Shown: one piece after another, positions 30,001-36,000 of the stretch | Position numbering within the stretch: the stretch's first letter is position 1 | Layout: each line of letters begins with the position of its first letter | NCBI RefSeq assembly: GCF_002854065.1 | Contig: NZ_CP024152.1 | Source: Escherichia coli | GTDB lineage: Bacteria; Pseudomonadota; Gammaproteobacteria; Enterobacterales; Enterobacteriaceae | DNA: 64,000 nt | Direction: 5' to 3' (one strand) | Position numbers: made by a program

Positions 30001-33000
30001 CCCTGACATCGTCCGGTAATCCTTCCCAGCGACGCTGTTCAGTACCGCTCTGCAGCCAGAGTTCATGCAGCATCAGGCAGTTTTGTTCATCCAGTAGCAC
30101 ACCGTTCTGCAGGTGTGTCAGCCAGCGTGTGAACGCGATATTCTCCGGCGATACAACACCACGTCCGGCAGCCGTCAGTCCGGGGCACGGTTCAAACTGC
30201 ACATCTTCGTGGTCTGCAGAAGTCCGGCACTTCCGGCCAGAAACAGCTGAATACCTTCATTTGTGGCGCGGCGATAAAACGGTGTGACTGCGCCGCTGGC
30301 CAGTCGTTTAATCTCAGCGATCTGTGCCGGTTCACCAGAAAAATACATACGATTCGAGCACCAGTTTGGCATGGGAATTCTCCTCTCACATGCGGCCTCC
30401 ATCAGGCCGTGCCGCACCTGTAACCGGGCGACCGCATACGAATGCAGGTGCGGCCCCGAAGCCGCAGCGCGTGGAGGAGGAACGACGAAACGTGACCGGG
30501 TGAGGAGGCCGGCGACAGCGACACACTTGCATCGGATGCAGCCCGGTTAACGTGCCGGCACGGCCTGGGTAACCAGGTATTTTATTCACAGAACCGTGCG
30601 CAAAATGCTGTGGATAAGCTGAACACAGCAGTCCACAGCAGGCATACAGCCACACTCTCAGAGAATTGAGCGCTTTTTAGTCACAATAATGACATTTGAC
30701 TGTGTGTGGATTCAGTTATTAGAATACTGTATATGCATACAGCAACAGAAAAGGGAGATGAGAACATGATCCGCATTGAAATTCTTTTCGACCGCCAGAG
30801 CACAAAAAACCTCAAATCAGGCACACTTCAGGCGCTACAGAATGAAATCGAACAACGTCTGAAACCACACTACCCGGAAATCTGGCTGCGTATAGACCAG
30901 GGCAGCGCCCCGTCTGTATCTGTCACAGGAGCCCGCAACGACAAGGATAAAGAACGTATCCTGTCTCTGCTGGAAGAAATCTGGCAGGACGACAGCTGGC
31001 TGCCTGCAGCATGAGTACCGTTTATCACCGTCCGGCTGACCCTTCAGGCGATGACAGTTACGTGCGCCCGTTGTTTGCCGATCGTTGCCAGGCCGGTTTT
31101 CCTTTCGCCTGCCACTGATTATGCTGAGCAGGAACTGGATCTGAACAGCTATTGCATCAGCAGACCTGCAGCCACCTTCTTTCTGCGCGCCAGCGGTGAA
31201 TCGATGAACCAGGCTGGCGTGCAGAATGGTGATCTGCTGGTAGTGGACAGGGCCGAAAAACCACAACACGGGGACATCGTTATCGCTGAGATCGACGGTG
31301 AGTTCACCGTCAAACGACTGCTGTTGCGCCCACGCCCGGCACTGGAGCCGGTTTCAGACAGCCCGGAGTTCCGCACACTGTATCCGGAAAACATCTGTAT
31401 TTTTGGTGTTGTCACTCACGTGATACACAGGACGCGGGAGTTACGCTGATGTTTGCACTGGCTGATATCAACAGTTTCTACGCCTCATGTGAAAAAGTTT
31501 TCCGCCCGGACCTTCGCAACGAACCGGTCATCGTACTCAGCAATAACGATGGCTGTGTGATCGCGCGCAGCCCGGAGGCAAAAGCCCTTGGCATCAGAAT
31601 GGGGCAGCCCTGGTTTCAGGTGAGACAAATGCGCCTGGAGAAGAAAATACATGTATTTTCCAGCAATTATGCGCTGTACCACAGCATGAGCCAACGGGTT
31701 ATGGCTGTTCTGGAGTCGCTTTCTCCCGCAGTTGAGCCCTACTCAATTGATGAAATGTTCATTGATTTGCGGGGGGTGAACCGTTGCATCTCTCCGGAGG
31801 TTTTGGTCATCAGCTCAGGGAACAGGTAAAGAGCTGGACAGGACTCACCATGGGGGTGGGCATTGCGCCTACAAAAACGCTGGCTAAAAGTGCACAGTGG
31901 GCAACAAAGCAATGGCCACAGTTTTCCGGTGTGGTCGCGCTGACGGCAGAAAACCGTAATCGGATCTTGAAGCTACTGGGGCTGCAGCCAGTTGGTGAGG
32001 TCTGGGGAGTAGGACGCAGACTGACGGAAAAGCTGAATGCACTGGGTATTAACACAGCACTGCAGCTGGCGCAGGCTAACACGGCATTCATCCGGAAAAA
32101 CTTCAGCGTCATTCTTGAGCGTACGGTACGCGAACTCAACGGCGAGTCCTGCATATCCCTGGAAGAAGCACCACCGGCAAAACAGCAGATTGTCTGTAGT
32201 CGCAGTTTTGGTGAACGAATCACAGACAAAGATGCCATGCACCAGGCTGTTGTTCAGTATGCAGAGCGGGCCGCAGAGAAACTACGTGGGGAGCTTCAGT
32301 ATTGCCGGCAGGTGACGACATTTGTACGGACATCCCCCTTTGCAGTAAAAGAACCCTGTTACAGCAATGCCGCTGTGGAAAAGCTTCCATTGCCCACACA
32401 GGACAGCCGGGACATTATTGCCGCCGCATGCAGAGCCTTAAACCATGTCTGGCGTGAAGGGTACCGCTATATGAAGGCAGGAGTCATGCTGGCTGATTTC
32501 ACACCATCGGGTATAGCGCAGCCGGGATTATTTGATGAAATCCAGCCCCGTAAAAACAGTGAAAAGTTAATGAAAACACTCGATGAACTGAACCAGTCGG
32601 GAAAAGGGAAAGTGTGGTTTGCGGGGCGAGGAACCGCCCCTGAATGGCAAATGAAACGGGAAATGTTGAGTCAGTGTTATACAACTAAATGGCGAGATAT
32701 TCCCCTGGCCAGGCTGGGTTAGTTCAGTCATCTCCGAACATATTTTCAGCGTTTCTTCTGGTCTGGTCTTCACCGTCATTTCTCGACAGACTCTGCTCTG
32801 TAAGAGGAGTACTGCAATCCACAGACGTATGGAGACCAGATTGTTTTTCCAGTAATTCAAGCAATTTCTTTTCAACCGAAAAAGCACCTGGTATCACGCT
32901 GGAAATCACCTTATTAATATCATCCAGAGTCGTATTTTCTGTCAGTAACTCCGATATCAGCAAAGGAAGACGTTTATCTATAGCTGCAAACGCCGCACCA

Positions 33001-36000
33001 GTAACTAACATCGCGCGCATGAAACGTCCCCGCTCCTTCAGTTTTTCATTTGCAATGAGCTCATCTGCTATCTTATCTCCTGTCCGTTCATCCGGGAAAA
33101 GTTCAAATGAGCAGCGTCTGGATTTATTTTCATCACTCATTAGTCACACCACCTTTCATTTTTATCATTCCCATGACTAAATCAAACTGCGGGGATGAGC
33201 TCAGATAAAAGCGCTCATCAGGAACCTTAGTCAGGTTCTTCACAGCCTCGGCCACAATTTCAGCCCCACCACCAACACACATTACATGTGTATAGTCGGT
33301 GAAACGGCTGATGACATCATTAACTCGTTTAATAAGCAACTTCTGCCGTTCATTGATAACATTAATGATAGACTCACGCTGTTCAGCATTATAAATGCGA
33401 CGGGAAAGGTAGTCAGGTTCATTACGGTGCACAATGATATTGTCAGCCTGGAATGAGCTCACTCTTGTATTAGCATGTACAGCCATCTGTTCCTTAACCC
33501 CGGATGTAATCAGGGACACGCCGATATTTGGATCACACCAGGTTTTTGTAATCCCTGTCATTTTGCTACGAACATGCGACACATCAAGAGTTGTACCACC
33601 GAGATCTACGATCAAAAGGGATTCATCATCCTCAAGCCCCGCAAGAACACTGAAACCAGCGGGAATACTTTCAGGAAGAACGGAAACACTGCGAATAACA
33701 AATGCATCACTCCCCTGCACCCGTACTTCACGCATCACATTTTTTTTCTTTCTTTCAATGTTTTGCTTATTTTTCTGATTGTTGGCGTCAAGGTATTCAG
33801 AGATCGGCAATGTGACGATGACATCAACAGGCTGCGCTTTCAGGCCGGTCTGCTGTAGCGCATGCTGAATGGCCACAACATTCACATCACTGTACTGATA
33901 GCGTGTTTCAGTCGTTACGACAGCATCAGCACTTAATGGATCAAATGAAAACTTCTCGCCGTCGATCTCGTAATTAGCCGGGGCAGCATCATCCAGTAAA
34001 CTAAAAGACCATTCCGGTTTAAAGCTGTTAGGGCTGATTAACGTTTTCACGTCACCATCCTCCAACCAGGCAAGTTTAATGTTGGTAGAACCATCATCAA
34101 TAAAGATTTTCATAACCAGTCTCCGTTGCTCATAAACAAATAGAAAAAACAAACATGCTTCATACATGCAATGTATATTCAATTATAATGAAAAAACGGT
34201 CTTTCTGAAAGGACAAATGCAACATAAAAACACGATAAATTGCATGTACATTGTACACACAACTTTAAGACCAGAGGAAATCATAGATACAAAAACATTA
34301 TGAAGGTTATATGTGATACATAAATGCAATATAAAAACATCGTGGACATCATGGTTCAGGTTAGGGGAAAAGGAATGAAATGGTGAAACTGAGAGGAAAG
34401 GAAAGCGGTGACGAATCATGTCACCATAAACAGAAAGATGTCTAATGGGGACTCTTTAGGTACGTGAAGAATCCCCATAACGCATTTAAAAGACACACAT
34501 CAGATACCTTTAAGGTATCCGATAGTTTATTGACCTATTGCACCATCACGTTCAAGCTTCTCTCTTATAGCCTCAATAATATATGAGCTAAAATCCAGAG
34601 ATGTTTTACTGGTCGCTTTAAGTTCCGCATGAGCTTCAAAATACGACAGCGGTATGGCCTTAAGATTCTTAGCCTTCGTCCTGGCAGCCACGGGACGACC
34701 TGAAACTTCCTCTGCACCTTCATTTGGCTGAGACGGGGCTGTTGCTGTTACGGCAGAAGAAGAAGTTTGTAATCTGGCAGAATCCACCAGGTTTTTCAGT
34801 TTTTCAGCCTGTGCACTAAATTTCGCTTTGCTCATGAGATAACCCAGGATGTTTGTTAGATACTTAAAAGATATCCATTAAAAGCCCAAAGGATACTATA
34901 TGGATACCCAATAGACACACCTTACTGTTTGTTATTTTCAATCAGATGATTGATTTCTTCGATCAGGGCAATAACTTCCTTACCTCCTGCCGAATAGCGC
35001 CCATGAACAGACTCTGTGATTCCCATCCCAGTCTCAATGACATCCTCAAATTCTGCACGAGCAGAAATGCGGCTCTTCATCAGCTTCAGATGTTTGAACG
35101 ATGGCAGGATTGCATCAAGCTTAGGGAATTTCTTCTTGTTAGGATTAACTTTACAGAGATACAGGTGAGCAGTTATATCGGTCCCCATGATAGAGCTGAT
35201 TTCGTCCAGTACTCCATCAAAATGCATCAGACCAATACGTTCAGTCAGGGAGTCTTTTGAAGGAACAATAACGCAGTCTGCAAAGGCAATCGCAGTACGG
35301 GTAAGATCTGAGTCAAATCCCCCACAGTCAATAAGTAACGTCTTATCGCTGTTCTTGTAGGGAGTCATAATTTCGATTAACTCATCCACTGTTTTGGGTA
35401 CTTTCACGGAAATTTCTTTTCCTTCAGGTCTCAGCCCCAGAATGATAGAAAGCCCGGTATGAGTATCCAGATCAACTGTATCAGACTTCATTTCACCAAC
35501 AATGTTTACGGATGAAGTTGTCTTACCCACACCACCTTTGGGATGCGTATTAGCAATAACAGGCATAGTGTATCTCCAGAATCCACATGTAATACCCATA
35601 AAGACCCCATAAGACACCTTTCGGATATCCAAGAGGTACTCAATAGATGTTTTTTTACTCTATACCGGTCCTGCATGTCAACAGAATATGAAATACCGAT
35701 AATATATCCATGAGATATCCGAAAGGGATTTAAAAAAGTCAGAGCTTATGGAATTCTTTTGAGCATAGACACCGCATCGGACTCAGGCATCGAAAACTGC
35801 ACCCGGTGCCGTGCAGCCACATCCAGTGCAAACACCTTCGTGTAGACCTCCGTTGAGCTGATGGACTTATGCCCCATCAGACTCTGCAGGACCTTCAGCG
35901 GTATACCGGCATACAGCATATGCATCGCATAGGAATGGCGGAACGTATGTGGCGTGACCGGGACAGAGAACGTCACACCATCAGCGGCAGCGGCGGCAAC

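Follow-up and report, generated by a model that had tools for sequence, protein, structure and literature searches.

Two adjacent, predicted partition cassettes of different type in the R64-type stability region of an IncI-complex plasmid from Escherichia coli

In a 64-kb stretch of Escherichia coli DNA (contig NZ_CP024152.1; hereafter, the window), four full-length genes on the minus strand, parA, a gene for a protein of 102 amino acids (aa), parM and parR, form two cassettes, with 413 bp of intergenic DNA between the ParA cassette and the ParM cassette that follows it. An earlier note on this DNA had proposed that an actin-type ParM/ParR cassette adjoins a Walker-type ParA cassette at this place, and family matches as well as coordinates bear this out (Table 1). 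Together, the sequence and the comparative evidence indicate that these are probably two different partition systems.

Table 1. Genes and candidate cis-acting sites of the double partition region, in window positions
Feature	Position	Strand	Description
Distal upstream array	35687-35730	-	~4 units of 11 bp; holds inverted-repeat arm 35714-35726
Candidate parA promoter	35652-35681	-	TTGACA (35681-35676), 18-nt spacer, TAAAAA (35657-35652); putative, read from the sequence
Proximal upstream array	35570-35651	-	~7 units of 11 bp, up to the parA ribosome-binding site; holds inverted-repeat arm 35617-35629
parA	34922-35566	-	214-aa small Walker-type partition ATPase, deviant Walker A motif KGGVGKT, no N-terminal DNA-binding domain
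Intergenic array	34836-34921	-	~8 units of 11 bp filling the 86-bp spacer; cores GTGTC/GTATC/ATATC/ACATC
102-aa protein gene	34527-34835	-	Presumed centromere-binding partner of ParA; follows parA after the 86-bp spacer
Downstream array	34431-34526	-	~8-9 units of 11 bp, from the stop codon of the small gene; first two units form palindrome 34498-34526
Candidate intrinsic terminator	34397-34426	-	Hairpin followed by a T-rich run, -9.2 kcal/mol, z = -2.8; putative function
parM promoter and candidate parC	34120-34345	-	TTCAGA-16-TATAAT (34209-34182), scan score 10/12; centromere assigned by position only
parM	33133-34113	-	326-aa actin-like segregation ATPase
parR (stbB family)	32724-33140	-	138-aa adaptor; 8-nt overlap with the end of parM

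ParM matches the Pfam StbA_N domain (E = 5e-82) and the ParM C-terminal domain (E = 2.5e-72), aligns over its full length with ParM of plasmid R1 (E = 6e-104), and has intact nucleotide-binding motifs (FIDDGSTNIKL and DLGGTTLD). ParR belongs to PF10784 (Plasmid_stab_B, E = 7.6e-28), and its N-terminal 83 residues align with ParR/StbB of plasmid pB171 (PDB 2JD3, E = 2e-6). A ParM with intact motifs and a ParR encoded directly downstream of it, as expected of a type II system, are thus both found here.

The ATPase of the other cassette matches the Pfam families AAA_31, MipZ and CbiA. It aligns end to end with the NCBIfam model ParA_partition (E = 1.6e-14), with a score below the cutoff of that model (53.9 vs 180 bits), and a profile of its family matches, over the full length and with E ~1e-17, a 214-aa plasmid ParA (5U1G) and ParF of plasmid TP228 (4DZZ). 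The Walker A, A' and B residues are unchanged in all relatives compared, and the protein is, as expected for type Ib, an ATPase of about 200 aa with a deviant Walker A motif. The candidate parA promoter sits between the two upstream repeat blocks and obtained no call in a consensus promoter scan; TTGACT-18-TAAAAA is aligned at the same position in a Klebsiella relative (L008), and TTGACA is also present in a Yersinia relative.

Less can be said of the 102-aa protein, which the earlier note had classed as a ribbon-helix-helix (RHH) protein paired with ParA. That a small gene follows the Walker-type ParA gene was correct, but its RHH label could not be confirmed, since searches with the sequence gave no match in Pfam, NCBIfam or the PDB, a family-profile search of the PDB gave none either, and the structural models were of low confidence. 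Conserved in this protein are an N-terminal helix, with the motif MSKxKFxxQAEKLKxLVxSARLQTS, and a C-terminal domain of extended-helix-helix pattern (family consensus, K.K.L...P..YF..H..LK..G.T.L.FS.YI.EA.REKLERD); the linker between them is variable. AlphaFold2, applied to the family alignment, predicted one helix near the N-terminus (residues 4-19) and, beyond a disordered linker, two more in the C-terminal part (predicted local distance difference test, pLDDT, 65), and a pseudo-dimer of the C-terminal domain joined by a glycine-serine linker gave the same helices and no strand (pLDDT 61; predicted template modelling score 0.44). Profile comparisons with hhalign to ParG, pESBL ParB and pB171 ParB were not significant, with a probability below 1% for ParG and pB171 ParB, and DUF3950 was matched, weakly, by 15 of the 66 members of the family. 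An RHH fold would be consistent with the extended-helix-loop(G-K-T-S)-helix pattern, though by resemblance alone. GenBank and RefSeq records widely label this protein 'molecular chaperone GroEL' or 'chaperonin', and otherwise hypothetical; the former labels are clearly a propagated misannotation.

Around parA and its partner gene lie arrays of an 11-bp unit close to GTATCYTWWWG, as direct repeats read in register on the coding strand, and they occupy three places: the surroundings of the parA promoter, the spacer between parA and the small gene, and the sequence directly downstream of the latter. In every array patch of the window the highest autocorrelation was found at lag 11 or lag 22, with p from <0.001 to 0.03 against shuffled sequences. 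The distal upstream block has a lag-11 self-identity of 0.59, as compared with 0.31 in shuffles; lag 11 is also the highest in the proximal block (0.45, p < 0.001), lags 11 and 22 are equal in the intergenic array (both 0.44, p = 0.0025), and lag 22 comes before lag 11 in the downstream array (0.41 and 0.35, p ~0.03). The proximal block and the downstream array are kept in the related copy L012, and the downstream array also, in part, in L008. We used autocorrelation as the main evidence for the arrays because a position weight matrix, being built from its own sites, is circular and describes a weak motif (316 matches in the whole window, vs 302 in shuffles). Arrays of short repeats overlapping the promoter, another property of type Ib systems, are therefore present at the level of sequence. 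Lag 22 equals or exceeds lag 11 in several arrays (window 34431-34921 and relatives L008-L011), so that two 11-bp repeats together may make up the functional unit. As RNA, the palindrome at the start of the downstream array folds with -15.6 kcal/mol (z = -5.2); known RNA families were not found in the intergenic regions.

The ParA pair had also been thought to be flanked by GGATATCC-containing inverted sites. These GGATATC-containing sites do form a perfect 13-nt inverted repeat, longer than any found in 2000 shuffles of its region (maximum 11), but they are not a flanking pair: both arms lie upstream of parA, as the most conspicuous units of the 11-bp arrays. GGATAYC occurs 24 times in the 64 kb, six of them within array patches. 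The inverted repeat is nearly kept in a 92%-identical copy of the region and absent from the Klebsiella relative, indicating that the conserved feature is the array and not the palindrome.

Relatives of this cassette are numerous. A 90% cluster database contains 77 close homologues of the 102-aa protein, tblastn matches it in 1335 plasmid records, and its family comprises 77 clusters at 50% identity (among 1.8 billion representatives), mostly of 70-118 aa. We inspected four distant relatives, on a Klebsiella IncFII plasmid, a Yersinia plasmid, a 51-kb Klebsiella plasmid and a 39-kb Aeromonas phage-plasmid. Each of them encodes a homologue of the small protein (36-72% identity) directly after the ParA gene, as expected of a paired partner, and ParMR is not found near the pair. 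The pair constitutes the only annotated partition genes of the Aeromonas phage-plasmid. Of the 12 corresponding patches (one upstream, one intergenic and one downstream in each relative), 11 are likewise dominated by lag 11 or 22, and every relative has an intergenic array, of 61-95 bp, with a lag-11 identity of 0.51-0.63 (p < 0.001). That the pair stands alone in these relatives, with the three-array layout, points to a self-contained partition module whose tripartite organization of sites is conserved. The sequence of the array unit varies by lineage, and so does the segment of the small protein presumed to read DNA; such co-variation would be expected of a cognate protein/centromere pair. 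The Aeromonas caviae replicon (NZ_CP097210.1, L014; 39 kb) contains capsid, portal, terminase and tail genes and is therefore a phage-plasmid that uses a member of this cassette family for maintenance.

The region upstream of parM was described in the earlier note as a single iteron-like stretch, 34180-34520. This has to be revised, because the stretch is composite: 34431-34526 belongs to the ParA module, as the downstream array, and only about 34120-34345 is a candidate parM promoter and parC. This promoter candidate has inverted TACATGCAAT-type repeats on both sides and two 18-nt direct repeats 107 bp apart (34215-34232 and 34322-34339). Its repeats are scattered, with a weakly raised lag-11 signal (0.37 vs 0.30), and the motif AATGCAAYRT did not show any window-wide enrichment. 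Since parM has a sigma-70-like promoter candidate of its own, preceded by the terminator-like hairpin, the two cassettes are likely to be expressed separately.

The 3.2-kb sequence spanning the four genes, used as a query, matched 4300 PLSDB records, of which 1074 cover at least 80% of it. The top match (100%) is E. coli plasmid pWP2-W18-CRE-03_2 (NZ_AP021916.1), a conjugative IncI-gamma/K1 plasmid of types MOBP and MPF_I, and the window, which also contains genes for RepA, NikB, PsiB, Hok and a large ParB/Spo0J-like protein of the leading region, is part of an IncI-complex conjugative plasmid. Gene order in the IncI1 prototype R64 (NC_005014) is that of the window (hypothetical, site-specific integrase, ParA family, hypothetical, ParM, partitioning/stability protein, ImpB), and the accessions of ParA, the small protein and ParR are shared between R64 and NZ_AP021916.1. 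At megablast level, the ParMR half was found in 1078 PLSDB records, the ParA half in 1107 and the whole block in 1074, and the open reading frames (ORFs) are identical or nearly identical in more than 1000 plasmids, R64 included. The four-gene arrangement is thus widespread and ordinary among R64-like plasmids, far beyond chance.

Selection was evaluated from the ratio of nonsynonymous to synonymous substitution rates (dN/dS), taking as reference diverged copies from IncF plasmids in which all four genes are still together beside umuC. The ratio is 0.03-0.05 for ParM, 0.095 for ParA and 0.28 for the small protein. With full-length ORFs and values well below 1 for these three proteins, the claim that type II and type Ib-like cassettes stand here in tandem, neither of them degraded, holds.

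The double par locus of pB171, which Ebersbach and Gerdes are said to have described in 2001 as par1 (ParMR, type II) and par2 (ParAB, type Ib), also has cassettes of types Ib and II immediately adjacent. ParA is of 214 aa in both loci, the N-termini of ParR are recognisably related, and arrays lie up- and downstream of the type Ib operon in each. Unlike the R64-type cassettes, which are co-directional and have separate promoters, pB171-type loci are divergent, ParB-ParA pointing away from ParM-ParR with a shared central regulatory and centromere region, and they do not contain the extra array between parA and the small gene. Moreover, the components are not orthologous, with identities of only 19% for ParA and 37% for ParM and without detectable similarity between the small proteins. 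The ResD-like tyrosine recombinase encoded upstream of parA (35746-36525) is 94% identical to one (936-1745 of record L015) beside a pB171-type locus on an IncFIB plasmid. A shared recombinase neighbour combined with non-orthologous par genes implies that unrelated type Ib and type II pairs occupy an equivalent slot in IncF and IncI backbones, and suggests a conserved recombinase-adjacent slot for the exchange of partition cassettes. A 2026 survey counted 971 PLSDB plasmids with a type I-RHH plus a type II system, and we found 976 pB171-type records in PLSDB; from the closeness of both numbers, R64-type loci may have gone uncounted in that survey.

We also considered whether the locus is the published IncI system of pESBL, which could be ruled out: ParA is only 24% identical, its partner is unrelated (E = 0.77), and the GATAACAA octamer is not clustered. 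Likewise, tblastn of the pESBL proteins against the window found no ParB of that type, and ParA matched only the window's own parA, with 24% identity. For the type Ib pair of pESBL and pMS7163B (WP_000587689.1 and WP_001245884.1), plasmid stabilisation, foci and binding to GATAACAA octamers in electrophoretic mobility shift assays have been proven (Daniel et al. 2020, PMC7602700). These plasmids are of the IncI family and, as in the window, have beside impB a small Walker-type ParA, a partner of about 100 aa of no known family, and short repeats on both sides; unlike in the window, the two genes of pESBL overlap, without an intergenic array, and ParMR is not adjacent to them. R621a combines a pESBL-type pair with a ParMR located elsewhere, whose ParM and ParR are 66% and 38% identical, respectively, to those of the window. 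IncI plasmids are thus polymorphic at the partition slot adjacent to impB. The parAB genes of pMS7163B were stated to be absent from R64, and those of R64 to be 100% conserved in pESBL (PMC10286972). By RefSeq accessions, pMS7163B, pESBL and R621a have one and the same ParA/ParB pair, and the first 50 kb of R64, impB slot included, do not contain it. At least one deposited record labels the R64-type ParM/ParR genes parA/parB, which is probably the origin of this confusion in names.

Each cassette can also be compared with single systems. The ParM cassette agrees with ParMRC (StbAB) of R1 and NR1 in the order promoter region, parM, parR and in having a ParR of the StbB family. In R1, parC consists of ten regular 11-bp iterons. 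A regular array of this kind upstream of parM is not statistically supported here, and the window contains scattered direct and inverted repeats around the parM promoter. Also unlike in R1/NR1, the resemblance of ParR to solved homologues is confined to the N-terminal domain. The ParA cassette, in turn, recalls ParF-ParG-parH of TP228 in its ParF-like ATPase (4DZZ) and its small partner with a flexible N-terminus, a C-terminal strand-helix-helix pattern and a G-K-T-S loop, compared with K-G-T-S in ParG. Arrays of short repeats that also cover promoters are shared with both TP228 and the delta-omega system of pSM19035, where sites lie before both genes. It differs from both in its helically phased 11-bp unit, in place of heptads or tetramer boxes, and in that an RHH fold was not demonstrated; furthermore, the 102-aa protein does not have significant sequence or profile similarity to ParG.

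We interpret this region as the R64-type stability block of IncI-complex plasmids, containing two complete, co-directional and separately organized partition cassettes for redundant or condition-dependent segregation, and we assign to this interpretation a probability of about 0.7. It builds on the identity and intactness of the genes, the purifying selection, the linkage of the cassettes, and the repeat arrays with their conservation in relatives, all of which were observed directly. DNA binding, autoregulation and ATPase stimulation by the 102-aa protein, and stabilisation of the plasmid by either cassette, are predictions. Cassette 1 (35730-34431) would act as a type Ib ParABS system, in which the 102-aa protein would bind cooperatively to the phased 11-bp arrays at their three places, building the partition complex and repressing its own promoter, while its conserved N-terminal segment would stimulate the Walker ATPase ParA; nucleoid-bound ParA would then position the plasmid copies apart. 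Cassette 2 (34345-32724) would act as a type II ParMRC system, with ParR binding the repeat-bearing promoter region upstream of parM and ParR-bound plasmids capping ParM filaments, which would push sister plasmids to opposite cell halves. Both motors would thus work at adjacent sites of a single low-copy plasmid, making segregation redundant or dependent on conditions. Redundancy, or use specific to a condition or host, is reasonable by analogy with pB171, R27 and pINV; function of a double system has been demonstrated for pINV and is cited for R27, the contributions being condition-dependent or masked.

Several points weigh against this interpretation. The dN/dS of ParR is 0.57, a value that derives from only four amino-acid changes; regular 11-bp iterons upstream of parM did not reach significance in register information content; and no fold could be assigned to the 102-aa protein. 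In the literature searched we found no functional work on the R64-type locus, and the IncI partition work that we did find (pESBL and pMS7163B) concerns a non-orthologous type Ib pair. To these must be added that a single type Ib system suffices for pESBL, pMS7163B and many IncI plasmids, so that having both cassettes may be dispensable, and that deletion of one of two systems in pINV and SCP1 had little effect under laboratory conditions. The last two points favour the possibility that both cassettes are intact, with one of them carrying the ordinary segregation load and the other serving as a backup for certain hosts, temperatures or growth states, or against titration by a co-resident plasmid (incompatibility escape). 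That R621a joins yet another pair of systems speaks in the same direction, since it indicates that the modules are exchangeable add-ons. Nevertheless, ParM and ParA are both under strong purifying selection, and either cassette is seldom found without the other, an indication that there is a reason for keeping both; such a backup, which differs from the preferred interpretation in degree only, appears to us possible but not the likely case. Decay of one pair into a remnant is very improbable, because all four ORFs are of full length, catalytic motifs are present, the other three genes show dN/dS values of 0.03-0.28, and ORFs nearly identical to these occur in more than 1000 plasmids, R64 included. 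Neither a disrupted frame in most copies nor a dN/dS close to 1 was seen. The ParR ratio is the point in its favour within the window; elsewhere the module does decay, as about 1200 IncF plasmids retain no more of parR than a 163-bp fragment.

Other explanations concern how the cassettes relate to each other and what the ParA pair does. The two might form one integrated unit with cross-talk as in pB171, where it is documented for the adjacent type Ib and type II loci: the small protein, bound at 34431-34526, about 220 bp upstream of the parM promoter, would modulate read-through or parMR expression, and the centromere would be composite. The gap between the downstream array of cassette 1 and the beginning of the repeats upstream of parM is indeed below 100 bp, and the complete block transfers as one into IncF plasmids. 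However, the parM promoter region (34114-34430) does not contain any scoring unit of the cassette-1 11-bp type, terminator-like hairpins separate the cassettes, and the relatives have the downstream array without a neighbouring ParMR, so that this array is a feature of cassette 1 alone; we therefore view integration as rather unlikely. Alternatively, ParMRC might be the sole true partition system, the ParA/102-aa pair serving in transcriptional regulation, with the ATPase as partner, or in the positioning of, for example, the transfer apparatus. The absence of a recognisable family or fold for the small protein and the unusual operon-internal arrays of presumed binding sites would agree with this, as would the precedent of Omega of pSM19035, a small centromere-binding protein of similar class that is also a regulator. 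We disfavour this explanation and deem it improbable, because the ATPase resembles ParF and ParA partition ATPases over its full length, because the cassette provides the only annotated partition genes of a 39-kb phage-plasmid and lacks an adjacent ParMR in the other plasmids examined, and because the combination of a small ParA, a small partner and arrays up- and downstream fits type Ib systems, including that experimentally proven in pESBL.

IncI1 plasmids like R64 are major vehicles of extended-spectrum beta-lactamases and AmpC in E. coli and Salmonella of human, food and livestock origin, and their persistence without antibiotic selection rests on segregation and addiction systems. Knowledge of a double system with definable cis sites would offer targets for incompatibility-based curing and help to explain plasmid co-residence and host-dependent stability. 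The concept itself gains little, because adjacent type Ib and type II loci and the redundancy of partition were already established, and our addition, the definition of the tripartite 11-bp arrays and the recognition of an unnamed family of presumed centromere-binding proteins, is modest. A more far-reaching and quite tentative proposal, which we think doubtful, would be that the ParA/102-aa cassette represents an undescribed type Ib-like family with a tripartite, partly operon-internal centromere, and that its downstream array, abutting parC, creates a hub of about 1.6 kb with cross-talk between two motors. If true, some 1000 more sequenced plasmids would carry double par loci, which surveys seeded by pB171 and pSM19035 proteins probably miss.

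The fragment of parR found, unannotated, in about 1200 mostly IncF-type PLSDB plasmids corresponds to its 3' end (window 32724-32886, 98.8% identical) and looks like the scar of a lost ParMR module. The neighbouring impB (umuC-like; 31449-32722) contains a 1-bp deletion near 31801 with respect to the otherwise 99.97%-identical NZ_AP021916.1, splitting it into ORFs of 126 and 312 aa, through a genuine frameshift or an error in sequencing. Lastly, a third partition-related gene of the plasmid is the large leading-region gene of the ParB/RepB/Spo0J family (21826-23757, minus strand), 97% identical to the copy in R621a; it corresponds to 'parB_2', which was dispensable for the maintenance of pMS7163B by transposon-directed insertion site sequencing (PMC10286972).

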